Assembly (NCBI GenBank): GCA_965242525.1
Contig: OZ251459.1
Span: 32,001-96,000, forward strand
DNA: 64,000 nucleotides
Source of the DNA: an uncultured Candidatus Binatia bacterium
GTDB taxonomy: Bacteria; Desulfobacterota; Binatia; UBA9968; JAJDTQ01
Direction of reading: 5' to 3'
Part shown: positions 33,402 through 53,900 of the stretch, in pieces
How the letters are laid out: each line of letters opens with the position of its first letter
How positions within the stretch are numbered: position 1 is the stretch's first letter
The notes under the pieces: generated by a model
Database searches by the model: none
Told to the model about the DNA's origin: nothing
What the model saw: only the letters and a program-made list of their open reading frames with translations
Program-made: the position numbers and the translations under genes

Positions 33402-33467
33402 TTGACTCCAAGTCCACGATAAGGCGATAATGGAATCAACAATTCCATTTTGCGACCTGAAATGGAA
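33402..33467 (+). promoter_or_regulatory. Promoter with overlapping palindromes upstream of AAA-DUF4143
   Basis: TTGACT-18bp-GATAAT; ATGGAAT/ATTCCAT and TCCATTT/AAATGGA inverted repeats. Confidence 0.45.
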
Positions 33468-34643
33468 CTGATAAGTCGATTCTTCCAAGTCCCGGACCGG
33501 AGTTTCTTTCTGTTCGGTCCCCGCGGGACCGGCAAGTCCACGTGGTTGCGTCACCGGCTGCCCGACGCCTTGCACCTCGACTTGCTGGACCCGGAGTCCC
33601 ATCGCAGCCTGAGCGCCCGTCCCGAGCGCCTCCGGGAACGGCTTGCGGGTTCGCCCGGCAAGACGACGGTGGTCATCCACGAGATACAGCGCGCGCCGGA
33701 GCTGCTCACGGTGGTCCACGCCCTGCTGGAGGAGCCGTCGCCGCCCCGGTTCGTGCTGACCGGGTCCAGCGCCCGCAAGCTCCGCCGCGGCGGCGTGGAC
33801 CTGCTGGGGGGCCGGGCGGTGCAGTGCACGCTGCATCCCTTCATGGCCGCGGAGTTGCCTGCCTTCGACCTGGAGCAGGCGTTGCGCATGGGCCTGTTGC
33901 CCCTGGCGGTGGGCGCGTCCGAACCGGCGGCCGTCCTCGACGCATACGCGAGCCTGTACCTGGACCAGGAGGTACGGGCCGAGGGGATGACCCGCAACGT
34001 CGGCGCGTTCACCCGGTTCCTGGAAGCCGTCAGCTTCTCCCACGGCGCGCAACTCAACGTCGCCGCGGTGGCCCGGGAGTGCCAGGTGGAGCGCAAGGTG
34101 GTGGCCGGGTACGTCGGTATCCTGGAGGACCTGCTGATCGCCTTCCGGCTGCCGGTCTTCCGCAAGCGCGCCAAGCGGGCCACCGCGACCCACGAGAAGC
34201 TCTACCTGTTCGACGCCGGCGTGTTCCGCTCGCTGCGCCCCAGGGGACCCCTCGACCGCCCCGAAGAGATGGACGGGCAGGCCCTGGAAGGGCTGGTGGC
34301 CCAGCATCTGCGGGCCTGGGCCGCCTATTCCCGGCAGGACGCGGGCCTGTTCTTCTGGCGCACCCGCGCCGGCGCCGAGGTGGACTTCGTGGTTTACGGC
34401 GAGTCGGGACTCCAGGCTTTCGAGGTCAAGAACGCCGACAGGGTCCATTCCCGCGACCTGCGGGCGCTCAGGACCTTTCGCGAGGACTACCCCGAAGCGG
34501 AAACCGCCCTGCTCTACCGCGGTCGAGAGCGCCTGCGCATGGACGGGATCTGGTGTCTGCCGGTCGCGGAGTTCCTGTGGCGGATGGCGCCGGACCGGGA
34601 CCTGCTGGATGTCCCTTCCTCCCGCGCCGGAAGATCAGGGTGA
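33462..34643 (+). CDS. AAA_14 ATPase with C-terminal DUF4143 (PD-(D/E)XK-like)
   Basis: GPRGTGKST, VIHEIQR (Walker B D->H), LTGSSA, KLYLFDAG, EVDFV..FEVK. Confidence 0.9.
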   Translation: MELISRFFQVPDRSFFLFGPRGTGKSTWLRHRLPDALHLDLLDPESHRSLSARPERLRERLAGSPGKTTVVIHEIQRAPELLTVVHALLEEPSPPRFVLTGSSARKLRRGGVDLLGGRAVQCTLHPFMAAELPAFDLEQALRMGLLPLAVGASEPAAVLDAYASLYLDQEVRAEGMTRNVGAFTRFLEAVSFSHGAQLNVAAVARECQVERKVVAGYVGILEDLLIAFRLPVFRKRAKRATATHEKLYLFDAGVFRSLRPRGPLDRPEEMDGQALEGLVAQHLRAWAAYSRQDAGLFFWRTRAGAEVDFVVYGESGLQAFEVKNADRVHSRDLRALRTFREDYPEAETALLYRGRERLRMDGIWCLPVAEFLWRMAPDRDLLDVPSSRAGRSG

Positions 34644-34680: not shown

Positions 34681-37600
34681 TCAACCGGCAGAAACGCCCC
34701 CGAGCGGTCCCACGCCGAGGACTTCCACGAGCTCGGCGACCACGGCCACGGCGTCCTCGTCCTCCTCCGCCAACTCGATGGGGGCGAACTCGCGGTTGAC
34801 GGGTTCGAGCACGATCCTGACGTGCCGCCAGCCGTTTTCGTCCTCGGCCTTCTCGCTGCGATAGCGCTTCACCGTGAAGCGAAGGCCGGTGTCCGGATCG
34901 ACCGCGTCGCGTAGCTGCACGAGCACCACGCGCCCCTGACGGGAGCCGGTCACGGGATGGGCGAACAGGCAGTAGGCGCCGTCGGGTATGGCGGGTTCCA
35001 TGGACCGTCCGACGACCTTCGCCGCGAACATCCCGGGACGCAGCGAGCGGTGTGTGTCGAGTTCCACCCAGTCCCATTCGGGATCGTCGGGTACGGATCG
35101 AGGGTTGCCGAACGCGCCTGCGGCCGCCTGGAGCGGCGCCAGCGGCACGCAAGTCACGTAGCGTGCAGCGGCCGTCGGCGTCACGAGCCGCAGCGTCCGT
35201 TCGTTCGCCGCCGCGGCGTCGTGGAACCAGGAGCGGTCGTCGCGCACGCGGTTGCGGACGTCGAGCATGTGGAGGTAACCGGCCAGGCGCCGGAAGTGCT
35301 GCACCATGGCGTTCTCGTCGTGGAGGTCGTTGGCGGCGACCTCGATCACGTCGTAGCCGTGGTTGCGCAGCCAGTCGCGGATGGCCCGGTCCCTTTCCGC
35401 GGTTTCGGGGTTGCCGTGGAGGGGGCGGCTCAGGCCGTCCAGGTAGATGCACACGCCCTCGTCCGGCTCGTGGTCCTCGGCGCGGTAGATCACGTCCGGC
35501 GTGGTGGTCCCCAGCGTCCGGTCCAGCCGCACCTGTTGGTTGCGAATTCCCTCGCCGAACCCCGCGGCGCGCAGCAGGTGGCGCAGCCGCGTTTCCGCGT
35601 CGTTGACGGGCATGGCGTCGGCCGCGGGCCTTTCCGCGGGTTGCAGCGGCGGGACGGGGTGCTCGAACGCGAGACGCGCTCCCCACGCGTCGAGCCGCTC
35701 ACCGGCGATCCGGCGATGGAGGAGATGGTGGTAATAGGCGTTGCGGAAGTTCTGGAGGCAGTCGATGCAGGAGGACTCGCACGCCCCGGCACAGTTCTCC
35801 ACCACATCCCGGGCCGCTCCCACGACTTCCGCGAACCGCTCGCACAAACGGTCGAGGAGGCCGGAGCCTCCGGGCATGGGGTCCCACAGCATCGCGTCCA
35901 CCTCCGGGCGCTCCACGTGGCCCATCACCAGTATCTGCAAGTCGTCCACGTGCATGTCCAGCACGTGGGTCGCGCCCAGTCGCAACGCCTCCAGCACGCT
36001 GTACCCGGTGGCGGCGTCGTCGCACGCGGGCAGCGAGAAGGCGTCCGCGGTCACGTCGGCGTAGAAGCCGATGTCTTCCGGGGCGCGCCGGCACCTTTCG
36101 GTATGGGACTTGCGGAACTCCTCGCGCTGGCGCTCGGACGAGAACGGCGAGACGCTTTGGCCGCACACCACGCAGACCGGGTAGCCGAACACTCCCCGTT
36201 TCCTGATGGAAGTCGAAGCTCCCACGTTGACGAGCCGCATCCGCACCCCCCGCCGCAACGACATGGGCCGTGTCCCCCAACGGTACGCTTGTCCGCCGCC
36301 GTGCTGGCCCAGCTCGAGTCCATGGACGGCGACGCCGAGTTGGAACCGCAGGTCCTCTTCGTCGGAGATGTGCGACGTGTGGACGAGGTCGGCGTCGCAG
36401 ATGGCCATGGTCCGCAGGGCTTGTCCGTTGAGGGAGGAACTTGCGTCCCCAGAGGCGGGCTTGACGGCTTGCCGTTCCGCGGAAACTTCGTAAACCGGCG
36501 TCTCGGCCTGCTCTTCGCCGAGGTCCCGGTGGAACCGCCGCGCTACGAAACGGTGGCCGTTGGCGTAGATGAGGTTGCCGGGAACGTATTCCCGCAAGGC
36601 CGCGGCAGGGGGTCGAGGCAAGCGGAAGTCCCTGGCGCCGGCGTGCCAGAAGGGGATCTCCGCCCATCCCACCACCGTGCCGACCTCGAGACCGTAACCG
36701 GGCAGGAAACCCTCGGCCGCCAGCACGTTGAAGGTGTTGGAGTCGTCGTGCCCCTCGGCCTGGCTGCGCCGCCGTTCCTGGCCCTTGAGGCGCTTCACGA
36801 ACCTGTCGCAACGGCGGAACAACGCTTCGTCCTCGGGGTCGAGGGCGCCTTGCCGCTCGCGCCGCTCGTCGAGCCGCGTGATCTGGTCCATGGCCCAACG
36901 CAAGCGCCGGCGCAGACGGGAGACGACGCTTTCCAGATGGTCGGCGAACGTGTCCACGTGGCCGCGGAGCGCCGCGGGTTTCGTCACGTCCTCGTCCTCG
37001 TCCGGCCAACCCTGGTCGAAGACCCGCCCCACGTCCGCGGCCAGGTCGGTTGCGTTGTCCCGCACGAGCTCGCGCAGGGCGCCGAAGTCGAACGGCGCGG
37101 TGCGCAGTTCGCCGTCCCGGAACAGGTACGGCTCCACGCGCCCGGGCAGGCAGCCGTCCAGGACGCCGCGGACCGCGTGGCGTTCCGTTTCCGGGCGGTT
37201 CGGGTCGCGGCCGTATCGGTGCAGCGCGCCGATGACGGTAGCGTGGACGTGCTTGGCCACCATGAACTCGTTGCGCAGGTTGAAGGCCGGGGGATCGATC
37301 CTGCCGGCGAGCAGCTTGGCGGGTTCGGCGAAGTAGGCGCGGTCATGGGACACGGGGCGGCAGTAGGTGACGTCCACCGCCATGCGATGGCGGCGTCCCG
37401 CCCGCCCGGTGCGCTGCCAGTAGTTGGCCGGCAGCGGCGGCACGTTGCGCATGAGCACCGCGTCGAGCTGGCCGATGTCGATGCCGAGCTCCAGCGTCGG
37501 GGTGCACACCAGGCAGTTCACCGCGTCGGTTGCGCCCTTGAACAGGTTCTCCAGGCGTTCGCGCTCGTCGTCGGGAACCATGGCCGTGTGCTCTTCCGGG

Positions 37601-40600
37601 CGCAGCATGGCGTAAACCCCGTCCAGCAGTTGCAGGTCGTAGTGGTCGGGGTCTTCCGGCGCCCATTCCAGGACGCCGTCGCAGCGCCAAGCGGGGCAGC
37701 GGTCGTAGGGCAGGTCCCGCGTGGTGGTGCGGCGGCAACTCCGGCAGCGCCGGACGCCCCGGTTGGGGTTCAGTCCCAGCCGGTCCGCGTTCACCTGGTA
37801 AACGCCGCTGACCCGGGGCAACGGGCGCCCCTTGGACCCCTTGAGGCGCACCGGCGACAGCAGCTTGCGTTCCACCAGGAAGGCGAACAGGCTTTCCAGG
37901 AACGACGGGACGGCTTCCCGGGGCACGCCCCACTTGCCGGCCATCTGGCGCAACGTGGTGTCGCCGCCGTCGCTCAGCCATTGGGTGACCAGGTTGGGCT
38001 TCTCGTGCGGTTCCCGGCGCAGCTTGGTGGCGTTGGGGGACAGGAACCCCGGAAGGTAGCCCTGCTGGATTTCCCGGTCCCCTTCCTGCCACATCTTCGT
38101 GAAGATCTCGTACTCCGGGTCGTGCAGGGCGCCCCTGCGCCGCAGGTAGTCGAGCACGCTGGCCACGCCCTCGCGCAGGCGTTCCGGCGCGAGGCGGAGG
38201 TCGTGGGCGTGTTCCTGTATCCACGGCGCGGCAGCGTCGAGGCCCCGGTATTCGACTTTCATCCGTCCCCAGGGTTCGAGGCCCAGGGCCTGTCGAGCCG
38301 ACAGCGTCACCTCTCGCAGTACCTGGAAGCGCAGGTACTTGCGGCGCTCCTGTGCGTGGCGGTCGCCGCCCCCTTCCTGTCGGGCCACCTGCCAGACTTC
38401 CGGGATCAAGGCTCGCGACAGCGTTGCGTCGGCATCCAGCAGGTCGTCGAGGCAGGCGGTGAGGTCGCCCACCGAGCGCGGCTGGGCCTTGATGCCCTCC
38501 GCCATCAGCGCCCGCAGCCGGAAGCGTCGGGCGTGGTCCTTCATCCAGCCGGCCTGGAACGCCGCGTCCTGGCGGTTATCGCAGAACACCAGCAGGCGTT
38601 GGCGTTCGGCGTGGTGCACCATGTCCTGGGTGAGGACGTGGACGTCGGCCACGTTGATGGCGCGCACCGGTCGCGCGGGTTCGCGGTATCGTCCAACGCC
38701 GGAGCGGCCCGCCGCGCTGCACGACAGGCAACTGGCGAGTTGCCCCGGGTTGTCAGCCTTCGAGTGCACCGCGTGCAGTCGGACCGCGGCGCCGGACTTG
38801 CCGCAATGAAGGCAGCGGGAGGCCGGCAGGGCATGGGCGGCGCCGCAGTGGCGGCAGAAGTGGAGCGCCGCGGTGCGGCGGGCGAGCGGCGTTTCGTCGG
38901 GCGCTTCGTCGTCATCGTCGCCGGCGCCGATGAGGCGGTCCGTCAGAACCACCCGCTTGCCCCCGAGGCTCTCTTCCAGCGGTTCCCACCACGAGCCCGC
39001 GGCCCCGGCCTCGCCGCCGCCCGGCCGCTTGCCGGTGAACAGGAAGTCCTTGAGGAACGCCACGTAGTAGTGCTGTCCGCAAGTGGTGCAGGTGGTGACC
39101 GGGAAGTGGGCTTTGCTCTCGCCTGACTCCCGGATCGCGGTTGCGTCCTCCGCGGCAAGCCAGAGCTTCGGGCCGTCCCACGCCTCCGGGAACGATACCA
39201 CGGCGCCGCCGATGCCGCGCACGAACACGTGGGCCACGGGCCGCAACAGGGGTCGGCCCTCGCGGCGCGCCGCGGCCCCAAGGGTCAGCCAGGCCAGGAC
39301 TTCCGCTTCGGTCACCACCCGCCCCAGGCGTTGCCCCAGGGCTTCGGCCAATTCGTCGAGGGCCTTGGGGGTCGTGAGCGCTTCGTTCAGGCGGAAGACC
39401 AGTTCGTTCCGGGACAACGCATCGTACAGGCGCCGGGGCCAGCCTTCCGGCCCGCCGGCCGCATCGCCATCCAGCTCCCGTCCGGACAGCGAGCGGTAGG
39501 CTCCGCCCACGCCGTCGCCCGACGCCTCTTCGTCTTCCACCGCGCGAACGCAGCGGTCGAGGATCCCGGCTGCGTCCCCGTCGGGTCCGGGCGGTACGGA
39601 ACGGGATTCCGCCCACACTTCGGATTCGTAGTCCTCCTCCACGGTGACCACCGCTTCGGAGGCCACGCCGAAGAAACGCGCGGCGAAATGGCGAGCGGCC
39701 TGCGGGTCTTCGCCATCGACGATGGTGGCGGAAGTGGCGACACAGGTGGTGTGGCCGGGGTCGGCGTTGCAGAACGCGCGCAGCCGCCGGATCAGGCAGG
39801 CCGTTTCCGCGCCCAGGGCGCCGGTGAAGGTGTGGGCCTCGTCGAACACGAGGAAGTCCAGCCGCGCCCCGTCGAACAGTTCCACGTCCTGCTGGCGCGT
39901 GAGCAGCAGTTCGAGTTGCTTCACGTTGGTGAGCAGGATCCGCGGTTGCCGGCCCGGGGCGCGCATGACCTCCCGGGAGCAGACCTCTTCCGCGGGATGG
40001 ACCGTCTCGCCCCTGCCTTCCCCCTGCGTCCGTCGGAGTCGGGCTTCGTAGTCGGCCCGTGACGAACCGGGTCCGAGCCGGACGCCGGCCACTTCCGTCT
40101 CCCGCTCCGGCGTCTTGCCCACGTAGATGCCGAAGGGGATGCCCGCGCCCGCTAGCAGCCCGCGCAGGCGCATGAGTTGATCTTCGGCCAGGGCGTTCAT
40201 GGGATAGACGACGACCGCGCTGACCCCGGGCGGCGCGCCGTCGTCCCGCAGGCGCAGGCATTGGCTGACCATGGGGTAGAGGAAGCACTCGGTCTTGCCC
40301 GAGCCGGTGCCGGTGGAGACCAGGGTGGTCCGCCCTTGGACGATGGCGCGGATGGCGCGTTCCTGATGGCTGTACAGGTGGGTGACGCGCCGCGGGATGC
40401 GCTCGCGCAGGTGGGGGTGGAGCAGCCCTTCGTTCACCAGGGCGTCCACCGAGGCGCCTTCCCGGAACGGGCGCGACAGGCTGACGTAAGGCCCCTTGAG
40501 CAGGGGCGAGCGGCGGGTCTCGTCCAGCGACAGCAGCGCCCGCATCTGTCCGTGCAGTCGCGGGTCGGCAAAGGGATAGGCGGTGAGCTGGTAGCGCAGG

Positions 40601-40731: not shown

Positions 40732-41967
40732 TCACCAGCGCCACAGGGCGCTACAGGGTACGGCGTGCAGCCGCTCGCCGAACGGCACCACCGAACCGCC
40801 TGCGTACAGGACGATGCCGCGGACGAAGCGGTCCCCCGCGGCCTGTGCGAGGTCCCGGAGACCCGTGAAGGCGCGCTCGGAGACCGCGCGAGTGGCCTTC
40901 ACTTCGACCCCGACCACCGAACCGGCTCGGTCCTCCAGCACCACGTCCACCTCCCGTTGGTCGTGGGTCCGGTAGTGGAACAGCCGCGGGCGTCGTCGGC
41001 TCCAGCCGGCCTGCTTGAACAACTCCATGATCACGAAGTTCTCCAACAGGCGGCCCGTCGCCTCGTCCGCGGCGCGCCCGGGCGCGCCGCCGAGGTTGTT
41101 CAGGTGCGCCGCCAAGCCCGTGTCGGTCACCAGCAGCTTCGGCGCCTTGGCCATCCGCTTGCCCACGTTGCGAAACCACGCAGGAAGGGAGTGCGCCAGG
41201 AACGCTCCGGCCAGCAGCGCCAGATAGCGTTTGAGGGTGGTCTGCGGCAGCGCCAGGGTGCGGGCGAGGTCTGCGTGGTTCGCCAGTGTGGCCTGCCGTG
41301 CCGCAACCAGGGTGAGCAGGCGCGGCAGTTCGCCGATCCCCTCGACGTTGGCCAAGTCGCGGACCTCGCGCTGCAGGACCGTCTCCACGTAACTCTCGTA
41401 CCAGGCGCGCCGTCGGTGCACAGTGCGGCGCGTCATCATTTCGGGATAGCCGCCGCGGACCGCCCGCGTGAACAGGTCGGCCTGGGATACCGCGGGAGGC
41501 GGCGTGGACGGCAGGTCCGCGTCGAAGACGGCGTCCACGAAGCCTTCCACCGCGCCTTCCAGTTCTCCTTGGGAGAACGGCCACAAGGTGTCGATCTCGA
41601 TGCGGCCGGCGAGCGCCTGCGACAGGTCGGGGACCACGTTGACCGCGGCCGACCCGGTGAGCAGGAAGCGGCCCGGACGGCGGTCGCGGTCGATGGCCAG
41701 CTTGACGGCGCGGAACAGCGCCGGCACGCGCTGTACCTCGTCGATGACCACGGGGCCGGGTTGACCGGCGATGAACTGGTCCGGGTCCGCGCGCGCCGCA
41801 GCCAGCGTCGCCGCATCATCCAGGGTAAGGTACGAAGCTCGATGCGGACCGTGAGCGATTAGCTGCGCGAGAGTGCTCTTGCCGGACTGCCGCGGCCCCT
41901 GGATGAACACCGCCGGGGTATCCGCCAGCGCCTCCAGGACAACGGTCTCGATATTCCTCCGCTGCAT
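40732..41967 (-). CDS. AAA_14 ATPase with DUF4143
   Basis: GPRQSGKST, IDEVQR, LLTGSA, RGGYPE, DTGL, LLENFV, EVDVV..VEVK. Confidence 0.92.
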   Translation of the reverse strand: MQRRNIETVVLEALADTPAVFIQGPRQSGKSTLAQLIAHGPHRASYLTLDDAATLAAARADPDQFIAGQPGPVVIDEVQRVPALFRAVKLAIDRDRRPGRFLLTGSAAVNVVPDLSQALAGRIEIDTLWPFSQGELEGAVEGFVDAVFDADLPSTPPPAVSQADLFTRAVRGGYPEMMTRRTVHRRRAWYESYVETVLQREVRDLANVEGIGELPRLLTLVAARQATLANHADLARTLALPQTTLKRYLALLAGAFLAHSLPAWFRNVGKRMAKAPKLLVTDTGLAAHLNNLGGAPGRAADEATGRLLENFVIMELFKQAGWSRRRPRLFHYRTHDQREVDVVLEDRAGSVVGVEVKATRAVSERAFTGLRDLAQAAGDRFVRGIVLYAGGSVVPFGERLHAVPCSALWRW

Positions 41968-43895: not shown

Positions 43896-46800
43896 CTACT
43901 CGAACAGTTTCTTCTGTCCGCTTTTCGCGGACGGTTTCGAGTCGTAATCCGGTTCGGGTTCGGCGGCCTTTGGCAGGGGCTCGGTTCCCGGGGCCGGGGC
44001 GTCGCGGCCGCTTCGGCTCCGGTACTCGGCGTCGTCCATGAGCTTGCGGGCGTAGAGGGTGTCCAGGAGCAGGAGGTGGGTCGTCTCGTTGAGATGGCCG
44101 CGGGTGCGGAGGTCGTCCACCATGGTCCAGTAGGGCGCTTCGTACAGGACCTTCCCGACGCGGACTCCGACCAGGAGCGCCACGTAGCCGTGTTCGCCGA
44201 CCAGTTCGCGGACGAAGTCGTCGGTGAGAAGGTCGAGGCAGTCCTCTCCGTCGGTGACGCGCCGCTGTGCCAGATCGACGAGGAGTTGGGCGTAGCCGTG
44301 GACGCCGAGGAGGTTGCGGGCGTGCAGGTGGCATTCCCGCCAGGATTCCTCCGCGCCCTGGGCAAGCTGCCAGTCGTGGAAACGGGAGCCGAGCTGGCTG
44401 GCCACGGGCTGCGGATGCCTGGCGCGCTCGTCGTGCCCGAGGCCGTAGTCGGCGAGGCGGAGGGTTTCCGGGAGCATCCAGCCTTCGCCGTGGTTCTGGG
44501 AGAGGAAGGCGTCGATGCCGCGCTCGCGGTCGCCGCCCGCGGCTTCGACCTTCGCTTGGAGGTCATGGAAGGCGACGAGGGTCAGGACGGTGTGGCGGAG
44601 TTCGGGGTCCTTGTCCTTGTCAACGCGCCAGAATCCCTTGGGATCCAGTTTCCCGGAATGGAATGCACCAGCAATTTCCGATTGTGGGAGGTCGCAGTGC
44701 CGCAGGATGTGGCGCAAGTCTTCCTCAACGAGGCCGAACGCTGTCGAAACCAGCAGGTCCAGGATGATGTTCATCCTCAAGCGTTCACGACCTGTCAAGG
44801 CTGGTCTCATTCGCTCGGTATAGGAAGTGGAAGATGACGACTCGGTTCCTCGCAGGACCGTGGATAGGGGCTGGATATGACGCATTTCGGCAACGCTGCA
44901 TACCGGCAGGGGAGTTTCTTCGATGATGAACCAACTCGTATGCAGCCCCGAGAAACGCACGCGAAGAGAGAAGTCATAGACGAAGGAGTTCAGGATAGTG
45001 CCAAGCGGAAGGCATTGGTCTGCGGAGCAGTTCAGAACTCCGATGGAGTGTCCGCAAGGCACACCGGCTAGTGGTGAAACGATCATCGTCCGAGTATTCG
45101 TCGATGACGTGATGTCCATGAGCGCGATCTTCGGTTTCCGCACCGCGTAGAGGTAGTCGGTACAGTGTGCTCGATCCATCAGGTACTGCGGCTCGATCTG
45201 CTTGCGCTCCCAGGGAATTTCCCGCCAAACGGAACCGCGGCCTTTGCCGCTGACCCAACCCTTCTGGCTGGAATCGAACTGGCCGATCATTCGGCCTTCG
45301 TAGAACGGCAACGCTACGTCCCTGACCCCTCCCTCTTCCCGGGCGTCGTTGCCATCCCCTGACAGAGTAGGTGCGGGCGGGACACCCACGGTCCAAGGGG
45401 GCGTTGCGTACTCGGAGGTAGTTGTAGGTGGGTCCCGGTCCTGAATCCATGCGTCCCCTTCCCGCGACAGCACCACCCCCGCTGGGATGCTTGCCCGTGG
45501 GATTGGCAGCCGGTCATACGGCGGCTGTGCGCAACGCAAGCGCCAGTCGGTACGGGCTGCGTCGCCGGGTTTCAGCAGGTGGCCATGCACGAAACGGGCT
45601 TCGGCTTCGCGGCGTTCCGGGTCGGCGGTGGTGTCGAACAGCCACTCCTCCAACTCGATTTCCGCCTGTTCCGGCTGGGAAGGATCGGCGCCGAGTTCCG
45701 CCCACAGCTCCCCGATCGGCCGCCAGTCGCCGAGCAGCCAGCGGCTGTACTCGTCGGGGCGGTAGCCCTTCGCCTCCCACTGCGGGCGGGGCGGGAAGAG
45801 GCGGGAGTCGCTGGTCATGTTGAAATCGCCTTGAGAATAACGAATGCCCCAGCCGTCCGGGCCATCGTCGCCGAGCAGCACAGCGTTGGCGTAGATCTTC
45901 TCCAGGATCTCCAGGTCGCGCTTCGACTGGATTTCGAAGATGGCGTGGCTCCTAGGGCTGAAGCGCTCGACCTGCGCCCGAGTGTAGGGGATGGTAAGGT
46001 GCTCGGCGCGCTCCCAATCGTCGAGGTTGCGGCGCATGAAGGCGGTGCGGATGGTCTCGGTGGCGGCGCCCTTCTCAACGATGATTGGGTTGAACTTGTA
46101 GCTCCTGTGGATCGGGAAGACCTTGTCGCGGTTCTCGATGCCGAACAGCCATTCCCATCGGCAGTGTCTGAGAAACAGTGTGCGCAGCGCGCCCGTGCCG
46201 AGGTCCGAGTAGAGGCCGGAGGGGACGACGAATCCGAGTCGACCGCCTATGCGAGACAAGGCATGTGCCTGTTCCAAGAACAGCTTGTATGTGTATGCCT
46301 TGCCTTTGCCTCGATGCACGAAAGGATGTGTTGTATCTGCAAAACTGAATGAACGAACTCTGGCCTGTCGCCACCGATCGTGAAATCTACTGTTCTCTCG
46401 GCTGTGAACTATAGTGTATAGTGCAACGTTCTGATTCTCGCCTGTTCCAAGGGGATCGCCGAACGGATTCGCAACATGTTTCATCCAGTTCGAATCATTC
46501 GCAAATCTACTATTGTAGTCGAGCCAACTGCATTCCACAGAGACTTCGTTAAAATAAGCTCTCTGTTTTTCTAACGCTTCCTGTTTTCCATAGGAGCGAT
46601 AGAGCGGATCGATATTTGAAAAGTATTCCTTGGAACTCGGTTGAAGTGTTTCCCACGGCGGATTGCCCAGCATCGCGTCGAAGCCCGATTCCGGCGCCCG
46701 GAACACGTCCGGGAACTCCAGCTCCCAATGGAAGAAGCGCATCTCCGCGGCGACCCGTCGGGCCACGTTCCGGGTCTCGTCCCGCGGTTGGGCGAAGGTC

Positions 46801-49553
46801 GTGGGGAGCGGGGCGCGGTCCAGTTCGTCCGCGGGCCAGAACCAGCAGGCGCACCACAGGTCCATGGCGTTCTTGAGCGAGCGCCAGGCCGTTGAACCCA
46901 GGAAGTCCCGCCGGTAGAGGTGCGCGCGCTCCCGGGCGTCCTGCACCGGCAGGGCGTGCATGTCCGCCAGCACGTTCAGCGCCTCGTCGTGGGCGCGTCC
47001 GGCTTCCGTCAGCAGGTCTTCCCGGAACAGGTCGGCGCCGGCCAGGAAGCGCTTCAGGTCCGGGGTCAGGGTGTCCTTCGTGAACTCCTTGAGGGCCTTG
47101 CCGCGGGCGTCTTTCCCGAAGTGCGTTCCGTTGCCGTGGTTCTTGTCGCCGCCTTCGCGGTTCTTCCACGCCATGACCGGGTAGTGGGCGAACTGGTCGA
47201 ACCACGCGCCGACGAGCGCGTTGCCGCACTTGACCTTGTGGTCCAGGAAACCGAACGGCAGGGTGCGGTCCATGGTCTCGATCCAGAGGGACAGGCGGCA
47301 GAGCTCCACCGCCAGCGGGTCGAGGTCCACCGCGTAAAGGCAGCGTTCCACCACGTGCCGGCGCAGCACCGCCTTGAGACGCGGCTCGAAGCGGTCGTCG
47401 TCGGGGCGGCAGGGGATCAACTCGTCGCTCAGGCCTTCGTCCTGTTCGTCCCGCTTGTCCCGAAGGCCCAGCAGGTGGACCAGGGCCCGGTCGCCGTCCG
47501 GTTCGATGCGTCCGTGGTGTTGCAGCGAGGCGTAGAGCGCGTCGGTGAGGAAACGCAGCGCGGCCAGCGGGAAGCTGCCGGAACCGCACGCCGGGTCGCA
47601 GACCTTCAGGTCGAGGATCCGCTCCGGGAGCTTCGGCGTCCAGTGCGCGGGCGGCGCGTTGGCGTCCGGCGTCCCGTCCTCGTCCACGGGCGGGTCGTAG
47701 GCCAGCGGGCGCAGCGTGCGCTGCACCGTCGGAACGGCCAGGCCGGGACGGGTGTAGAAGCTGCCCGAACCCTTGCGGGTGCCGCCCCATCGCACCAAGT
47801 ACCACTCGCCGGGCAGGACGACCCGGGACACGAGTTGCTTCGCCTTGGCGCCGAGTTGGGCGTCGAACGCGAGTCGGCGCGCCGAGGCGTCCCGGCCTCC
47901 GGCCTTGTGGGGTTTGACCAGGCCCGCTGCCTGCGCCGCCCGTCGCGCCCAGGTCTCCGCCCGGGTGCGGTTGCGTTGCCGCTCGTCGGAGCCGTCCGCG
48001 GTGTCTGCGGTCTCGTCCGGCTCGCCGTCGCGGCCCTCGGAAGATCCGTCGTCGTCTTCCGCCCGTTCCCCGACGGGAGCGTTGGCGGTCTCCGCTCCGT
48101 CGTCCGCCTCCACGCCTTCTTCCGCGGCTTCCGCTTTCGAGTCGCCTGCGAGGTTGGCGAACAGCGCCTTGAGGGCGGCGTCGTCCATGGCTTCCAGGCG
48201 CGAGAGGGGCAGCGCCGGCTGGTCGCCCACCGCCAGGAAGACCACCGGGTCGCCGGCCGGCGCGGTCTTCAACTCGTAGTCCAGCAGCCCTTCGTAGAGG
48301 ACGCCGATGTATTCGGACGAGAGATCGGAAAAGTCCACGGGAACGCGCGCCTGCTTGCTGCTCCGGCCCTGGCGAATGCGGACCGTGGTGCGGGTGAGCA
48401 GGCACAATATCCGGTAAACGTCCCGGTCCGGCATCGTGGTCTCGCGCTCGAAGCACGCGTTCTCGTAAACGGCCAGCGCTTGGGAGAGGCCGTCCGTTTC
48501 GCCCGCGGCCTCGCTCGGGGCGAACAGTTCGCCGCCGTAATCCTTCACCGGCAGGTCCGGGAAATGGGACCCCTGCCGCACGAGCCGGAACAGCGCCAGG
48601 ACCCGCGGCCAAGCGCCGTAGCTCTCGGCCAAGGCGCCGGGGTGGAGGGCGTCGCGTTCCAGCCGTTCGAGCAGGCCGTTCAGGCCGTAGCTTTCGTGGT
48701 AGAGGGCGTTGTCCCGGGGCAGCAGGTCGCGGGACTCCGCGAACAGGACCACCACCAGCCGCATGGCCACCCGGCAGGCTGCGCGGTAGATGTCCGCGGG
48801 AGCCGCCGCGGCGCACCGCTCCTTCAGCGCGTCGCCGTGGCCCGAGATCAGTACTTCCACCGCTTTGCGCACCCGCTCGCCAAGCACCTCGGACAGTTCC
48901 GCCTGTCCCTTGCGGGTGTCGCGGACGGCTTGCAGGAGCGGCGTCGGGGCGTCTTCGACCGCGGGAGTCCAGAGTTCCGGGCACAGCAGAGCGCGCAACG
49001 CCGTTACCTGCGGGGCGAGCTCGCCTTCCTCGAACCACAGGTCCAGGTCCCATTCGCACCACGCGTCGTAGTCCAGTCCGGCGAACAGCAGCCGCCACTG
49101 GCGTCCGTTGGTCACCAACGCGAGATGCTCGTTGCCGGCGCGGAGCCAGCCGAGCACCCGGCTGACCACGAGGCGGCTCCTGCCGATGCCCAGGCGTTTC
49201 TCGCCGTCCAGGAACACCGGCAGCCGCCCGCCGCGCCGGCCCTCCCACAGATGGCGGGGCTTGACCGTCTCTCCCGTAACGGCGCGTCGTCCCCACTCCG
49301 GCGCCACCCGGCTGCCGCGGGACCAGGCGCCGGTGGAGGCGTCCAGCCCGCAGACCCGTTCCAGCACGAAGGCGACGAACTCCGAGGCGTCGCCTTCGCC
49401 GTTCAGCAACGCTCCGGCGCGCTGGCGCAACTGGCCCTCGACATACTCGTGGAGCCGCGGGACGCCCCGGGAAAGCGCCTGCAACCGCGCGCTGTCCAGC
49501 AGCAGGCCCCCATGGCGCAGGTCTCCCCAGCAGTCGGTCAGGGTGTGGTCCAT
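43896..49553 (-). CDS. Large type IIG/Eco57I-like N6-adenine methyltransferase (DrmMI-like)
   Basis: VTNGRQWRL, IGVLYEGLL, RKGSGSFYT, DPACGSGSF, FHWELEFP..GNPPW, PFYEGRMIGQFD. Confidence 0.9.
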   Translation of the reverse strand: MDHTLTDCWGDLRHGGLLLDSARLQALSRGVPRLHEYVEGQLRQRAGALLNGEGDASEFVAFVLERVCGLDASTGAWSRGSRVAPEWGRRAVTGETVKPRHLWEGRRGGRLPVFLDGEKRLGIGRSRLVVSRVLGWLRAGNEHLALVTNGRQWRLLFAGLDYDAWCEWDLDLWFEEGELAPQVTALRALLCPELWTPAVEDAPTPLLQAVRDTRKGQAELSEVLGERVRKAVEVLISGHGDALKERCAAAAPADIYRAACRVAMRLVVVLFAESRDLLPRDNALYHESYGLNGLLERLERDALHPGALAESYGAWPRVLALFRLVRQGSHFPDLPVKDYGGELFAPSEAAGETDGLSQALAVYENACFERETTMPDRDVYRILCLLTRTTVRIRQGRSSKQARVPVDFSDLSSEYIGVLYEGLLDYELKTAPAGDPVVFLAVGDQPALPLSRLEAMDDAALKALFANLAGDSKAEAAEEGVEADDGAETANAPVGERAEDDDGSSEGRDGEPDETADTADGSDERQRNRTRAETWARRAAQAAGLVKPHKAGGRDASARRLAFDAQLGAKAKQLVSRVVLPGEWYLVRWGGTRKGSGSFYTRPGLAVPTVQRTLRPLAYDPPVDEDGTPDANAPPAHWTPKLPERILDLKVCDPACGSGSFPLAALRFLTDALYASLQHHGRIEPDGDRALVHLLGLRDKRDEQDEGLSDELIPCRPDDDRFEPRLKAVLRRHVVERCLYAVDLDPLAVELCRLSLWIETMDRTLPFGFLDHKVKCGNALVGAWFDQFAHYPVMAWKNREGGDKNHGNGTHFGKDARGKALKEFTKDTLTPDLKRFLAGADLFREDLLTEAGRAHDEALNVLADMHALPVQDARERAHLYRRDFLGSTAWRSLKNAMDLWCACWFWPADELDRAPLPTTFAQPRDETRNVARRVAAEMRFFHWELEFPDVFRAPESGFDAMLGNPPWETLQPSSKEYFSNIDPLYRSYGKQEALEKQRAYFNEVSVECSWLDYNSRFANDSNWMKHVANPFGDPLGTGENQNVALYTIVHSRENSRFHDRWRQARVRSFSFADTTHPFVHRGKGKAYTYKLFLEQAHALSRIGGRLGFVVPSGLYSDLGTGALRTLFLRHCRWEWLFGIENRDKVFPIHRSYKFNPIIVEKGAATETIRTAFMRRNLDDWERAEHLTIPYTRAQVERFSPRSHAIFEIQSKRDLEILEKIYANAVLLGDDGPDGWGIRYSQGDFNMTSDSRLFPPRPQWEAKGYRPDEYSRWLLGDWRPIGELWAELGADPSQPEQAEIELEEWLFDTTADPERREAEARFVHGHLLKPGDAARTDWRLRCAQPPYDRLPIPRASIPAGVVLSREGDAWIQDRDPPTTTSEYATPPWTVGVPPAPTLSGDGNDAREEGGVRDVALPFYEGRMIGQFDSSQKGWVSGKGRGSVWREIPWERKQIEPQYLMDRAHCTDYLYAVRKPKIALMDITSSTNTRTMIVSPLAGVPCGHSIGVLNCSADQCLPLGTILNSFVYDFSLRVRFSGLHTSWFIIEETPLPVCSVAEMRHIQPLSTVLRGTESSSSTSYTERMRPALTGRERLRMNIILDLLVSTAFGLVEEDLRHILRHCDLPQSEIAGAFHSGKLDPKGFWRVDKDKDPELRHTVLTLVAFHDLQAKVEAAGGDRERGIDAFLSQNHGEGWMLPETLRLADYGLGHDERARHPQPVASQLGSRFHDWQLAQGAEESWRECHLHARNLLGVHGYAQLLVDLAQRRVTDGEDCLDLLTDDFVRELVGEHGYVALLVGVRVGKVLYEAPYWTMVDDLRTRGHLNETTHLLLLDTLYARKLMDDAEYRSRSGRDAPAPGTEPLPKAAEPEPDYDSKPSAKSGQKKLFE

Positions 49554-49731: not shown

Positions 49732-50112
49732 TCACAGGACGCCACCCAGATCGAATGCGTCGATCTGCCGCATTATGCCGTCCATCGTATCGCGCCCTGT
49801 CACCCTCGAAACGGGCGCGTCAGGCCCTCGACGGGCGAAAATCACGTACTGGATCAAGCGGTCGTCGAGGAATTGAAGTCCGATGTGCGCGTCGTTCCCA
49901 TCGTTCCAGACAGCACGAAGATTTCCGTTTTCCAGCAGGACAAGGCGTCCGCGTCTCGTAAACGGGTTCTTCTTCAGAAAGTTCCAAAAGGCCGTCTCGG
50001 ATGCCTCACTGAGTGAGTACCCTTCGAGTTCGGCCTGCTCTTTCAGGACGTTGATCCGGCTTTCGTACAGGTTGTGACGCTCCCCTCCCACGCGAAGAAC
50101 TCCTATTCCCAT
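49732..50112 (-). CDS. Hypothetical protein (126 aa), lower GC
   Basis: MGIGVLRVGGERHNLYESRINVLK...LLENGNLRAVWND...GLQFLDDRLIQYVIF; protein-like composition, lies between the SNF2 and methylase genes. Confidence 0.6.
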   Translation of the reverse strand: MGIGVLRVGGERHNLYESRINVLKEQAELEGYSLSEASETAFWNFLKKNPFTRRGRLVLLENGNLRAVWNDGNDAHIGLQFLDDRLIQYVIFARRGPDAPVSRVTGRDTMDGIMRQIDAFDLGGVL

Positions 50113-50180: not shown

Positions 50181-53100
50181 TCAACCCGTTTCCGGCAACC
50201 GTACCTCGATGGCCACCGGGAACACGTGGGCGTCTCCCGCCAGCGCGAAGCGTGCGGGCAAGAGGCGGTCCAGGATCCGGGCGCGTTCCTGCTGCAACTG
50301 TTCGCGGATCTCTTCGTAGTGGGCGAGGCGGCGCTTGAGTTCCCGTTCCTTTTCTTCCAGGGACCGCTCCATTTCCGCGAGCCGCTCGGTGGCGTCGAAG
50401 AGTTCGCCCTGGCGTTGTCTTTGGCCGAGGGCTTCGATCTCTCGGTTCAGCCGTGTGGCCGTGGATTGCTCGATGAGCGTGGAGACCTCGCCTTGGCGTT
50501 GCCGGTAGCGTTCGTCCTCCCGTTTGCGGGCGGCTTCGCCGTCCACCGCCAGTTGGCGGCGCAGCCGCCCGGTCACCTGTGTCCCGTAGCCGCGCAGCCA
50601 TGTGCGCAGGCCGTTGCGGACGTCTTCGAGGACCTCCCGGGCGCGCTCCCGGTGGGCGGGGTCCGCGGCGTCCCGGGCGCCTCGCCGGGACCGGGCAGGG
50701 ACGTGCGGCAGCGGCTCTCCCAGGTCGCCGTTCCGCACCGGGAAGGCCAGGGTGCGCACCCAGCGGTGGAAGGTCTCCCGCAGCTCGTTCACAGCCAGTT
50801 CCTCGACGCTGAGCAGGACCACGGCTTCGGCGTCCGCGGGAACGGCGCCCAGCCGCACCGTCCAGCGCGAGACCTGCTGCTCGCCGGGGTAGCGGCGGCG
50901 CGTCAGTAAACCCAGGGCCCGCCGCATCAGCGGATGCGCCAGGTGCAGGAGCCGAGCGTCGCGTCGGGGCAGGAACACGCTCAAGCGCCCGAGGCGCTGG
51001 ATGAACGGTTCCGCGCTGAAGGCGAGCAGCGGCATGGGGCCTTGCCCGCCTCCGTGGACCGGCAGGCGCACGGCTTCGTCGATGACGTCGCGCCAGCCGC
51101 GCAGGTCCGGTTGGGCCATCCGGTAGAATCCCGGTTGCGCCGCCGCCCGTAGCTGCGGTCTGCCGCTGTCGGAAGTCGTCAGGGCGGTTTCGAGGGTGTC
51201 GCCGAGGGCTTGCGGGTCCAGGTCGATCTCCGCGGCCAGGACCTCGAGCAACGCTGCTTCCCCCTCTGCCTCGCGGCCCAACGACACCCTGGCGTCCGCG
51301 TCCATGGACGCGGCGCCCAGGACGGCCCGGAGGCCGGCATCCAGGTCGGCCCGGACCCGCGCCGCGTCCTCGCCTCCGATCAGGCGGCGGTGCGTGGCGC
51401 GGTCGAACAGTTCGTTCACCGAGCCCAGGTCTGCGCGGATTTCGTCGGCCTTGCGGACCACGTGGTCGAGGAAGCGCAGGTCCGGGTCGGTTGCGCTGAA
51501 GAAGTGGTGCACGGTCACGTCACGGGCCTGTCCGTAGCGGTCCAGGCGACCGTTCCGCTGCTCCAGCCTCGACGGGTTCCACGGGCAGTCGTAGTGCAGC
51601 AGGTAGCGCGCGGTGCGGTGCAGGTTGAGACCTTCGGAAGCGGCGTCCGTGGCCACCAGGACGCGCACCGGGTCGTCAGGGTCGTTGAAGGCCGCCTTGA
51701 CGTTCTCGCGGTCCGTGTCGTTCATGCCCTCGGCCCCGCCGCTGCCGAACAGGGTGAGCACGTGTTCCGGGGAGTAGCGTTCCGCCAGTCGTCGGGCAAG
51801 GTAGTCGAGCGTGGTCTTGTACTCGGTGAAGACGATCAGCCGTTCGTCGGCGCGGAACCCGCCGCTGGTCCGGAGAAGGCGTTCGATCAAGGCGGTGAGG
51901 GCGTCGAAACGGGTATCGACTCCGGGCGTCTGGCGGACCACCGGCGGGCCGTCGAGGACGAAGCCGAGGGCGTCCAGGGCGCGCTCGATGCCTGCGATTT
52001 CGTCCTGCACGTGGTCCGCGAAGTTCTTCAGCCACGCGCCCACCACGGTGGCCGCGGTGGCCTCGCGCTGCTGCGTTTCCCGGTCGTCTCCGGTCTCCTG
52101 CCGCAGGGACCGTTCCGCGGCCGTCAGCGCAGCCTCCGAGGCAGCGGACTCGTCGGCGAAACCCTGGCGCGCCCGGCGCCAGGATTCGGCGAACGCGGTG
52201 GGGCAGGAGAGCAGCCGCTTGCCCAGGATCTCCACCGCGAAGCTGCCCGCGCGGCGCCGCGGCCGGTCGCCTTGGGCCACGAGCCGGCGCACGGCTTTGC
52301 GAAAGGCGTCGAACGCGGCCACGAGACCGGCTTCCCGCAGCTCGGTGCGGAGGGTGAGGGCCTCGGGCGGCCGCCGTTGGCAGAAGCGGGGCGCGGGGGC
52401 CGTCCCGGGCACGGGGTCTTCTTCCCGCTCATGCCGCGTCCCTGCGTCCGTCCGCCCGGGGGGTTGGTCGATGTGGCGTTTCAGCCGGCGCACCACCACG
52501 TCGTCCACCCGTGCGCGCATGGCCGGGGTCATCTCGCTGGTGCGGGTGAAGCGCACGGGGTCGAGCATTTCCAGGAGGCCGGTGAAAGAGCGCGTGTGGC
52601 CGTTGTGCGGCGTGGCGGAGAGGAACAGTCGGTGCTCGAAGCGGGGCGCCGCCAGGCGCAGGGTCTCGCACAGGCCGCTGTCCTCGCCGAAGGGAGACGG
52701 CATGAGGTTGTGGCATTCGTCCACGATCAACAGGTCCCAGGGCAGGTGCGGGGAGCCGTCCGGCGTTTGGCAGGCGGCCAGGAACTGCTCGCGCACGTCG
52801 GGCTGGCGCAGGTAGTGGTAGGAGGCGACGATGCGGCTGAACGAGCGCCAGGGGTTGGCGTCCATGCCGAGACGACGGCGCAGGCGCTCGACGCCCTGAC
52901 GGTCCACCACGTCGAAGCGCAGCGAGAACTTCTCCCACAACTCGTCCCGCCATTGCTGGCGCAGGGAAGCGGGCGTGAGCACCAGCACGCGCCGGATGCG
53001 GCGGCGCAGCAGCAACTCGGTGAGGATCAGGCCGGCCTCTACCGTTTTGCCGAGACCCACGTCGTCCGCGAGGAGCAGGTTTACCCTCGGCATGCGCAGG

Positions 53101-53507
53101 GCCTTCAGCAGCGGCATGAGCTGGTAGTCCTCCACGCGCACGCCGCCGTGGAAGGGGCTGGCGAGGGGCTCGCGGTTCAGCGGGCCGGAGCCGTCCGGGT
53201 CCAGGTAGGGCGACAGCGCCGTCCAGCGCGCCGCCCGCAGGAGCGCGTCGAACTCGCCGGACGGCATGGGGTCCCGGCCGGCGTCCGGCAACGCGGTAGG
53301 CTCCAGGAGAGGGGGCTCATGTTCGATCTCCCACAGCAGCCGTTCCGCGGGCGGCTCGTGCAGGTCCTTGTACTCCACGTGCACCAGGTGCAGCCGCCCG
53401 GAATCGCCGTCGAACGGTTCTACTGCGGCCACCACGCCGAGCCGGTTGCGCACGGTGGCGATCATGCCGGCCCGAGGGACGGCGTATGGGGCGGCCGGGA
53501 CGCTCAT
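50181..53507 (-). CDS. SNF2-family helicase (DISARM DrmD-like)
   Basis: LADDVGLGKTVEAG, IVDECH, LSATPHNG, TDAASEGLNL, WNPSRLEQRNGRLDRYGQ, coiled-coil C-terminus. Confidence 0.9.
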   Translation of the reverse strand: MSVPAAPYAVPRAGMIATVRNRLGVVAAVEPFDGDSGRLHLVHVEYKDLHEPPAERLLWEIEHEPPLLEPTALPDAGRDPMPSGEFDALLRAARWTALSPYLDPDGSGPLNREPLASPFHGGVRVEDYQLMPLLKALRMPRVNLLLADDVGLGKTVEAGLILTELLLRRRIRRVLVLTPASLRQQWRDELWEKFSLRFDVVDRQGVERLRRRLGMDANPWRSFSRIVASYHYLRQPDVREQFLAACQTPDGSPHLPWDLLIVDECHNLMPSPFGEDSGLCETLRLAAPRFEHRLFLSATPHNGHTRSFTGLLEMLDPVRFTRTSEMTPAMRARVDDVVVRRLKRHIDQPPGRTDAGTRHEREEDPVPGTAPAPRFCQRRPPEALTLRTELREAGLVAAFDAFRKAVRRLVAQGDRPRRRAGSFAVEILGKRLLSCPTAFAESWRRARQGFADESAASEAALTAAERSLRQETGDDRETQQREATAATVVGAWLKNFADHVQDEIAGIERALDALGFVLDGPPVVRQTPGVDTRFDALTALIERLLRTSGGFRADERLIVFTEYKTTLDYLARRLAERYSPEHVLTLFGSGGAEGMNDTDRENVKAAFNDPDDPVRVLVATDAASEGLNLHRTARYLLHYDCPWNPSRLEQRNGRLDRYGQARDVTVHHFFSATDPDLRFLDHVVRKADEIRADLGSVNELFDRATHRRLIGGEDAARVRADLDAGLRAVLGAASMDADARVSLGREAEGEAALLEVLAAEIDLDPQALGDTLETALTTSDSGRPQLRAAAQPGFYRMAQPDLRGWRDVIDEAVRLPVHGGGQGPMPLLAFSAEPFIQRLGRLSVFLPRRDARLLHLAHPLMRRALGLLTRRRYPGEQQVSRWTVRLGAVPADAEAVVLLSVEELAVNELRETFHRWVRTLAFPVRNGDLGEPLPHVPARSRRGARDAADPAHRERAREVLEDVRNGLRTWLRGYGTQVTGRLRRQLAVDGEAARKREDERYRQRQGEVSTLIEQSTATRLNREIEALGQRQRQGELFDATERLAEMERSLEEKERELKRRLAHYEEIREQLQQERARILDRLLPARFALAGDAHVFPVAIEVRLPETG

Positions 53508-53884: not shown

Positions 53885-53900
53885 AAGGGACCTGCACGGC

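Follow-up and report, generated by a model that had tools for sequence, protein, structure and literature searches.

The 64,000-nucleotide stretch analysed here (the window; positions 32,001 to 96,000 of contig OZ251459.1, from an uncultured Candidatus Binatia bacterium) contains a defence island of about 20 kb built around genes for an SNF2 helicase, an N6-adenine DNA methylase and a YprA-family helicase-nuclease. The island is probably an intact ARMADA-type system with the composition of Type I, a reversed gene order, passenger cargo lodged in a slot between the methylase and helicase genes, and a helicase that ends in a LexA-like S24 tail. It is neither a DISARM nor a Druantia system, and the status of new subtype, which an earlier interpretation made from the DNA letters (the sequence-only reading) had proposed, is withdrawn because the core was already described in 2025. 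That reading had been right in recognizing a methylase-containing anti-phage island that departs from canonical DISARM in its fused DUF1998 and its lack of a PLD gene, and its lead towards ARMADA, prompted by the combination of SNF2, methylase and YprA proteins, was also correct. It had discounted this lead for want of a UvrD partner, whereas Type I is defined without the UvrD/GajB-like ArmD.

As set out in the main text of the preprint of Bell et al. (bioRxiv 10.1101/2025.09.15.676423), ARMADA systems combine a YprA helicase carrying a C-terminal, active Vsr nuclease with an SNF2 helicase that is BrxHII-like and a methylase that is PglX-like. These three genes alone, without ArmD, make up Type I, usually in a YprA-first order, the SNF2-methylase-YprA order being also known; Type II adds ArmD, a RelE-UvrD (GajB-like) protein (10.1101/2025.09.15.676423, main text). 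The same text gives as marks of ARMADA a BrxA-like helical insert after the first RecA domain (RecA1), considered a synapomorphy of ARMADA and Druantia, and, before RecA2, a beta-rich zinc module with at least two CxxC motifs. The core gene set of the island matches that of Type I, so that the proposal of a new DISARM-related subtype fails. No UvrD domain was detected by Pfam among the island genes and, with the E. coli ArmD as the query, only two weak matches were obtained in the window and the 79 related loci described below, one to a Gabija GajB inside a slot and the other over 79 residues at the edge of locus L050.

The G+C content of the window is approximately 69%, and real genes were chosen by their third-position G+C. 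The SNF2 helicase (1108 residues; 50181-53507, minus strand; Pfam SNF2-rel_dom and Helicase_C) contains the GLGKT motif at residue 151 and DECH at residue 263 and is 32-35% identical to ArmA of E. coli ATCC 8739; judged by these similarities, it is an ArmA-like helicase of the SNF2/RapA type. Since it also exceeds the cut-off of the NCBIfam DISARM_DrmD model (NF038317; 646.3 bits, cut-off 610), this model evidently accepts ARMADA SNF2 proteins too; the PADLOC DrmD model PDLC02621 gave 631 bits. The methylase (1885 residues; 43896-49553, minus strand; Pfam Eco57I) has the S-adenosylmethionine motif DPACGSGSF at residue 653 and NPPW at residue 964, and is 25% identical to ArmB of the same E. coli strain over the catalytic region, NPPW included. 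By homology it is an ArmB-like, PglX-type N6-adenine DNA methyltransferase, with REase_MTase_IIG (PDLC03622, 1387 bits) as its best PADLOC match and DrmMI at 394 bits.

The helicase-nuclease (1988 residues; 34681-40647, minus strand) carries in one open reading frame (ORF) the Pfam domains DEAD (residues 93-181), Helicase_C (1024-1086), MZB/DUF1998 (1553-1631) and Peptidase_S24, which bears out the view that DUF1998 lies within the helicase polypeptide. Its layout comprises RecA1 (GTGSGKT at 113, DEAH at 269), an inserted helical domain, a zinc module, RecA2, an OB-CON-DUF1998 region, a Vsr-type nuclease and the S24 tail. The zinc module (residues 520-644) contains CTTC 520, CRHC 598, CLHC 612 and CLSC 640, all invariant in 27 sequences, and its region is beta-rich in the predicted model. 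The protein is colinear with E. coli ATCC 8739 ArmC, with an identity of 33% in its N-terminal part and of 23% from residue 583 to approximately residue 1600; the Cys-rich insertion found in the OB region of the E. coli Type II ArmC is absent from it. Homologues are numerous (1907 among 8000 candidates scored).

A PDB profile search with the alignment of the C-terminal part returned a single marginal match (3r3p, E 0.64), so that fold searches were needed for the C-terminal domains. With VIA-align, the domain at residues ~1680-1794 (35266-35610, minus strand) was found to match the Vsr-like I-Bth0305I (3r3p_B; Z 10.3, root-mean-square deviation 2.6, 97 residues aligned), the DUF559 protein NGO0050 (3hrl_A; Z 8.3) and E. 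coli Vsr (1cw0_A; Z 7.8), confirming the fusion of a Vsr-like nuclease to the helicase. The model of this domain has pLDDT values (local distance difference test, as predicted) that are mostly in the 75-92 range, and residues D1718, E1730, D1737 and H1744 do not vary among 16 sequences. By its fold and these residues, the domain is a Vsr/DUF559-type PD-(D/E)xK nuclease that is predicted to be active.

The PADLOC models applied to the locus gave a mixture of names (DrmD, REase_MTase_IIG, DruE3). Membership in DISARM was rejected, as DUF1998 is fused rather than found in a separate DrmB, no PLD DrmC is present, and DrmA models reach at most 50 bits on the helicase; neither a separate DrmB nor a PLD domain was seen by Pfam among the island genes scanned, as had been claimed. 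Membership in Druantia was also rejected, the DruE models scoring 230-330 bits and DruE3, the best of them, 332 bits split over three pieces, where the genome's own DruE reaches 1912 bits, and no DruH-like gene being present in the island. The canonical Druantia Type III pair of the same genome lies elsewhere (G000:C1 ~2759775-2769034, that is L090:7776-17035, minus strand) and consists of a DruH-like protein of 1072 residues and a DruE of 2014 residues, preceded upstream by a gene for an SDH-type ClpP-like protease. For annotation, the consequence is that the SNF2 protein is labelled 'DISARM DrmD' and the helicase 'DruE', and that only with ARMADA models will such loci be filed correctly.

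That the SNF2, methylase and YprA genes form a core, as the sequence-only reading had it, was borne out by a methylase-centred scan of species-representative genomes, in which relatives were found in 218 of 230 candidate stretches and 79 loci were kept with 10-kb flanks. The lineages include Binatia, Acidobacteriota, Gemmatimonadota, Spirochaetia, Gammaproteobacteria, Actinomycetota, a cyanobacterium, Chlorobiota, Verrucomicrobia and Planctomycetia. The SNF2 gene is upstream of the methylase gene in 70 of the 73 loci with upstream sequence (exceptions, L029, L044 and L059), and a helicase gene is found within 10 kb in 43 of the 79 loci, downstream on the same strand in 41 cases and upstream in two. 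A further 21 loci have at least 9 kb of downstream sequence and no helicase in it; 20 of them (19 genomes) were examined, and all hold a helicase homologue, at 66-76% identity, contrary to what would be expected if the three genes did not travel together. In 11 of these 20 loci, the distant gene shares the record of the locus and is 11-22.5 kb downstream, and in five more it is 11-17 kb downstream, provided that the numbered contig is the contig of the locus; L021 and L072 are on short contigs, where linkage cannot be judged. Within the Azotimanducaceae, the YprA gene comes first in L007 and L008 (helicase, SNF2, gap, methylase), with a helix-turn-helix (HTH)-M78/PIN pair of the kind described below downstream of the methylase gene, and L029 and L044 of the same family have no SNF2 gene within 10 kb upstream.

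Several observations weigh against the assignment to ARMADA Type I, and part of them would suit a different explanation, namely that two systems lie side by side, a BREX- or Type IIG-like pair of SNF2 and methylase and an independent, Druantia-like YprA-Vsr helicase-nuclease. The helicase is separately transcribed, with as much as some 22 kb between it and the methylase, behind a promoter region of its own (a consensus match only) and a gap that is variable and at times very long. In L056, 3.8 Mb separate the SNF2 and methylase genes from the only helicase homologue; L059 is an orphan, being the second methylase copy of a genome that has its full locus in L049. The best PADLOC matches of the methylase (REase_MTase_IIG) and of the helicase (DruE) also point to different systems. 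Such a side-by-side arrangement is nevertheless improbable, given that co-occurrence is near universal, with 41 of the 43 nearby helicase genes downstream on the same strand and a homologue in every one of the 20 loci followed further; that the core genes are similarly identical across phyla (approximately 55-80%), a pattern that would fit transfer as a unit; that every gene is required in the related E. coli system; and that the true Druantia III of this genome has a DruH partner of its own. There are other reservations. The assignment to Type I is made from gene composition rather than from a subclade phylogeny, for which the missing Cys-rich OB-region insertion is the single hint, and the SNF2-methylase-helicase order is near-constant among the relatives of the window, against the YprA-first order usual for Type I. 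The helical insertion (protein residues ~359-459, helices 35-135 of the model) gave, in a fold search with residues 325-700, weak best matches to winged HTH regulators (Z ≤5.2), and BrxA was not among the best 50 listed. Finally, in the parts of the two ARMADA reports available, experiments concern Type II, where ArmD is essential, and not Type I (10.1101/2025.09.15.676423; mBio paper).

For the E. coli Type II system, the main text of the preprint describes broad, non-abortive protection that needs all genes, the Walker motifs and NPPW, ArmD being essential (10.1101/2025.09.15.676423), and unmodified DNA is given as the likely target in the mBio paper. By analogy, the ArmB-like methylase of the window would mark host DNA, and the ArmA- and ArmC-like motors would translocate on unmarked invading DNA that the Vsr nuclease would cut, in a direct, non-abortive mode of defence. 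This mechanism for the window locus is inferred from the E. coli enzymes.

The last part of the helicase (residues 1835-1988; 34684-35145, minus strand) is, by Pfam and by fold, a LexA/UmuD/CI-type S24 module that the sequence-only reading had overlooked, together with the HTH-M78-UPF0175/PIN pair. Peptidase_S24 is recognized at residues 1870-1971 (27.4 bits, cut-off 23.3). The motifs of the tail are PLAPLQAAAG^AFGNP (AAAG 1841-1844, with Ala1843-Gly1844), Ser1882 in GRSMEP and Lys1927 in TVKRY, and we take its Ala-Gly pair, S1882 and K1927 to be the counterparts of the LexA residues. The AAG, Ser and Lys positions are invariant in 16 sequences from many phyla, and the Ser motif is found in 113 of 121 helicase homologues, the others being seven proteins of approximately 1800 residues that end after the Vsr domain and one unclear case. 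Foldseek returned 17 PDB matches at E ≤1e-3, each of them the C-terminal domain of LexA or of lambda CI, the first match to UmuD' coming at E 1.7e-3, and VIA-align gave Z values of 10.0 for lambda CI (1kca), 9.8 for UmuD' (1umu) and 9.4 for LexA (1jhc). One homologue of 1837 residues, P0087, ends nearly at the predicted cleavage-site motif (...PLIPLHAARR) and, from its sequence, looks like a natural, genetically pre-cleaved form.

The module is not confined to helicases of this family. In the same genome, a single-chain, Type ISP-like enzyme of 2347 residues with PLD, SNF2, N6-methylase and Type_ISP_C domains (G000:C1:2421063-2428106, plus strand; L089:6064-13107) ends with a Peptidase_S24 tail that is 58% identical to that of the window; its gene is followed by those of a 727-residue HATPase_c protein and of an unassigned protein of 433 residues. 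In a library of 1.84 billion proteins, the number of representatives that match the tail is 1757 at E ≤1e-3 and falls to 1012 at 1e-10 and to 107 at 1e-30. When the 80 best matches of at least 240 residues were scanned for domains, 38 were found to carry restriction- or defence-type domains and three a classical HTH, the other 39 being otherwise blank (many are fragments). The 38 comprise proteins with Type_ISP_C (11), MZB/YprA (five), type I HsdR-type (four), HNH (four), SLFN group 3 helicase (four), PLD (two), MmeI or N6_Mtase (two), SLFN_AlbA_2 (two), other ResIII (two), LlaJI (one) and McrBC family (one) domains.

The reading of the tail to which we lean, with some reserve, is that of a damage-triggered down-switch leading to restriction alleviation. 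The tail would self-cleave between Ala1843 and Gly1844, probably in response to filaments of RecA on single-stranded DNA (ssDNA), and the shedding of a dimerizing tail would lower double-strand cutting at times when host DNA has suffered damage and temporarily lacks its modification. The cleavage, what triggers it and what comes of it would all follow from the likeness to S24 proteins; the C-terminal model is of moderate quality, with a mean pLDDT of 63.7 that falls below 50 in the Ala-Gly loop, which weighs against the proposal. The same motif conservation and fold matches would serve equally an activation switch, in which RecA filaments formed on phage ssDNA trigger cleavage and free an auto-inhibited helicase-nuclease, as in the conversion of UmuD to UmuD'. 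In its favour, abstracts on Druantia III present the YprA helicase of that system as engaging ssDNA-containing replication intermediates. However, close relatives of the tail are found on Type I HsdR-type and Type ISP enzymes, which are classically active without any activation step, and the activation switch is accordingly rated as a rather unlikely, if still serious, competitor.

A little less likely still is that the tail is not a switch at all, being either a non-cleaving dimerization or docking domain, or one that is constitutively cleaved during maturation. The C-terminal domains of LexA, CI and UmuD are dimerization domains, and, for a Vsr-type nickase, breaking both strands would presumably take two active sites. 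Natural variation would agree with such a role and also counts against the down-switch, since about seven variants without a tail indicate that it is dispensable for some of these proteins, and Lys is replaced by Arg in four of the 113 homologues with the Ser motif. This alternative is disfavoured because the conservation of the Ala-Gly site, Ser and Lys across many phyla, and of the Ser motif in nearly all homologues, would be hard to explain without catalysis. A role other than a down-switch, an activation switch or the lack of regulated cleavage appears improbable.

Between the methylase and helicase genes, the island is open to other genes. The gap ranges from 10 bp (L047, L062) to 9563 bp in 41 loci, extends to approximately 22 kb in the more distant cases, and is 3248 bp long in the window. 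A total of 197 ORFs, called crudely in 37 gaps, fall into 154 clusters, of which 128 are singletons, some possibly spurious. A Pfam family was assigned to 60 of 131 slot representatives, and 42 of 79 had a PADLOC match at 1e-10. The cargo includes AbiEi/AbiEii (four to five loci), AbiL (L029), CBASS with HORMA/TRIP13/4TM (L045) or with E2 and patatin (L031), Gabija (L054), Septu (L016, L005), DarTG (L026), Avs2 (L044), DRT1a (L077, L073), a short pAgo with an Aga nuclease partner (L020), SoFic (L057, L018), a Bil-like system (L063), PDC-S68 (L076, L034) and, among the gap representatives, PDC-S19 and PDC-M30, besides SLFN_AlbA_2 proteins (seven loci) and zeta-toxin-like kinases (six loci). Smaller variable sites are the SNF2-methylase interval, the region upstream of the SNF2 gene and that downstream of the helicase gene. 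The methylase-helicase gap is a rich and well-delimited hunting ground for undescribed defence genes, 71 of the 131 slot proteins (from the crude ORF calls) being without a Pfam family.

In the window, all the genes listed by the sequence-only reading, namely those for SNF2, the 126-residue ORF, the methylase, the two AAA-DUF4143 proteins and the helicase, are present and intact. The minus-strand array is as listed; it is not contiguous, however, because a plus-strand pair (42058-43814) sits between the methylase and AAA genes. The first gene of the pair (42058-43302, with a true start that is probably near 42148) encodes a fusion of the Pfam domains HTH_3, Peptidase_M78 and UPF0175, and its resemblance to L011 and L018 at the nucleotide level starts at 42150-42187. 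Given its domains and its PADLOC scores (RmrA 116 bits, capP 58 bits), the protein is a putative RmrA/CapP-like antitoxin or regulator, made of an XRE HTH and an ImmA/IrrE M78 metallopeptidase. The second gene (43290-43814; 174 residues; Pfam PIN 24.7 bits, cut-off 23.6) overlaps with its start the stop of the first by 13 nt and encodes a PIN-domain protein, a putative toxin, which has no PADLOC match at 1e-10. From the comparison with RosmerTA, in which RmrA (HTH and M78 peptidase) has an RmrT toxin as its partner, RmrA models reach at most 116 bits on the first gene and the adjacent PIN gene lacks a PADLOC match at that threshold; the fused UPF0175 domain suggests a pair of the PIN/UPF0175 type. 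The pair recurs at 59-75% identity in nine of the 79 loci, usually at the methylase 3' end, and PIN homologues are found beside this end in L007, L008, L011, L018, L023 and L063, besides which L036 has a partial copy. The HTH-M78 gene is divergent from the AAA-DUF4143 and helicase genes; a role as dedicated regulator of the helicase operon was considered and judged unlikely, as elsewhere the gene stays at the methylase 3' end with 2.5-5 kb of other cargo before the helicase.

Directly upstream of the helicase gene, an AAA_14-DUF4143 ATPase of 411 residues (40732-41967, minus strand; Pfam) is preceded by a promoter-like site at 42002-41974 (minus strand; a consensus match only). It matches, with 544 bits, the PADLOC model PDLC04790 of PDC-S01, a candidate system of a single gene, and has, elsewhere in the 79 loci, only relatives of 28-32% identity in varying positions. 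The second AAA_14-DUF4143 ATPase (397 residues; 33450-34643, plus strand; Pfam; PDC-S01 184 bits) is convergent with the helicase gene at the island end, as had been noted with a start at 33462 rather than 33450. Absent from the syntenic loci L001, L004 and L010, and with an 82% identical copy inside the slot of L018, it is, by this comparison of loci, an insertion at the distal island edge. Between conserved flank and this inserted gene, a 29-nt unit (CATCCCATCCCCGTTCGTCCTGAGCGTAG-like) occurs four times in tandem at 33110-33225, just upstream of a promoter-like site at 33402-33431. The 126-residue ORF (49732-50112, minus strand), an internal start of a longer frame between the SNF2 and methylase genes, is of unassigned function: no Pfam or PADLOC family was found for it, the protein atlas gave only unnamed hypothetical clusters, and homologues are present in two of the 79 loci (L004, L011) and absent from L001, the closest syntenic one.

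The AAA-DUF4143 genes and the 126-residue ORF had been taken for dedicated accessory genes, a view that does not survive the rarity of the ORF, the sporadic and distant relatives of the AAA proteins and the presence of unrelated defence systems in the same place elsewhere; as gene content indicates, slot genes are swappable, independent passengers and not subunits. Very improbable, then, is a new DISARM-related subtype with these genes as its own components, for which speak the passing of the DISARM_DrmD cut-off by the SNF2 protein (646.3 versus 610), the 394-bit DrmMI match of the methylase and the position of AAA-DUF4143 genes on both sides of the helicase, and against which stand the missing DrmA/DrmB split and PLD gene, DrmA scores of ≤50 bits, a gene set that is the one published for ARMADA Type I (in the main text of the preprint), an ORF found in two of 79 loci, AAA-DUF4143 relatives that are sporadic, 28-32% identical and variably placed, and a closest syntenic locus that lacks all three genes.

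The chromosomal flanks of the window recur on both sides in the Binatia loci L001, L004 and L010, at nucleotide identities of 70-75% on one side and 83-87% on the other, and L019 shares the SNF2-side flank. The syntenic loci have the same flanks and different cargo, which implies that the core is an old resident of its chromosomal site and that the passengers change. No tRNA gene was found in or beside the island, the only one being that for tRNA-Ala at 9168-9243; flanking direct repeats were not found, and no integrase domain was detected by Pfam among the genes scanned. An ORF at 53504-54388 (minus strand), upstream of the SNF2 gene and apparently coupled to it translationally, was rejected as an antisense shadow of the conserved flank, which starts at 53693 by nucleotide comparison; it has 83-86% identical matches in four loci and no Pfam, PADLOC or NCBIfam match.

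A broader proposal, which we hold a little more loosely than the down-switch itself, joins the two features. ARMADA Type I loci may be long-lived chromosomal docking sites that collect and exchange other defence systems within the operon and, alongside, the S24 tail may be a portable, RecA-triggered autoproteolytic switch carried by many DNA-cutting defence enzymes. Its hosts would be the ARMADA helicase-nuclease and Type ISP, Type I HsdR-type, MmeI-like, McrBC-family, PLD, HNH and Schlafen-like helicase enzymes, restriction would be coupled directly to the SOS signal, and the outcome would be either built-in restriction alleviation or an infection-triggered licence to cut. If RecA-triggered self-cleavage is true, it would provide a direct molecular link from the DNA-damage signal to restriction-type immunity, and an answer to the question of how large translocating nucleases avoid killing a host with transiently unmodified DNA. 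To our knowledge, how such nucleases spare the host has so far been answered only for Type I enzymes, by way of ClpXP (cf. the abstract of PMC11109961). As to precedents, S24, LexA, peptidase and protease have no mention in the main text of Bell et al., the Table S2 of which may still list the domain, and no mention of a hypervariable cargo slot was found in the same main text (10.1101/2025.09.15.676423); S24 is also absent from the available text of the mBio ARMADA paper, and full-text literature searches brought up no title or abstract dealing with such a tail in ARMADA systems or restriction enzymes. The ARMADA main texts searched describe neither the S24 tail, the most novel feature of the island, nor the nested slot.

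Away from the island, a few other features of the window were recorded. A second, small patch of low G+C (0.61-0.63) at 14775-18517, plus strand, contains genes for a D12-class adenine methylase (14775-15728), a PIN-like protein (16781-17461) and a DUF1016/YhcG PD-(D/E)xK nuclease (17465-18517), and is probably a small defence or restriction-modification (R-M) islet. At 57946-59614 (minus strand), a gene for an RNA_ligase-domain protein (58850-59614) adjoins that for an ABC/AAA_21 ATPase (57946-58974); a pair of an AAA_15/21 ATPase (HEC-03B) and an RNA ligase is slot cargo in L038, and the ATPase gene at 57967-58758 belongs to the flank that is conserved in L001. The gene for selenoprotein B of glycine/sarcosine/betaine reductase (61400-62770, minus strand) is interrupted by ORF callers at the in-frame TGA 61730-61732; when this is read as selenocysteine (U347, ...TSTUGTS...), the frame runs to approximately 450 residues.

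Among known systems, LexA, UmuD and lambda CI (MEROPS S24) have the fold, the Ser-Lys dyad and the upstream Ala-Gly motif in common with the window tail; there, however, the module is borne by a repressor DNA-binding domain, whereas here it is at the C-terminus of a 1988-residue helicase-nuclease and its relatives are on restriction enzymes. Defence genes embedded in BREX or R-M loci, for example PrrC inside a locus of Type I, resemble the slot in that unrelated defence genes lie between the genes of a methylation-based system, but most members of the present family make use of the slot, which spans 10 bp to approximately 22 kb and accommodates whole multigene systems. Class 1 DISARM shares with the island an SNF2 protein that passes as DrmD, a large adenine methylase and a YprA-family helicase, and differs in having a separate DrmB and a PLD DrmC, whereas the window has a fused DUF1998, no PLD and a helicase that falls on the Druantia/ARMADA side. 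ARMADA Type II, tested with the systems of strains NCTC 12900, ATCC 8739 and EDL933, has the same ArmA-ArmB-ArmC order, and its Walker, DEAH/DECH and NPPW motifs are found in the window too; it has in addition the RelE-UvrD ArmD, which the window lacks, and its ArmC, as described in the papers, contains extra Vsr and EEP domains, in contrast to the single Vsr domain followed by S24 of the ArmC-like protein. The closest likeness is to ARMADA Type I as its main text presents it, with a BrxHII/RapA-like SNF2 helicase, a PglX-like methylase, a YprA protein with fused OB-CON-DUF1998 and C-terminal Vsr, a multi-CxxC module and no ArmD. The reversed order, reported there for archaea and cyanobacteria, is the rule across many bacterial phyla in the family of the window, which adds to the published plan a LexA-type S24 tail after the Vsr domain and a hypervariable slot between armB and armC.

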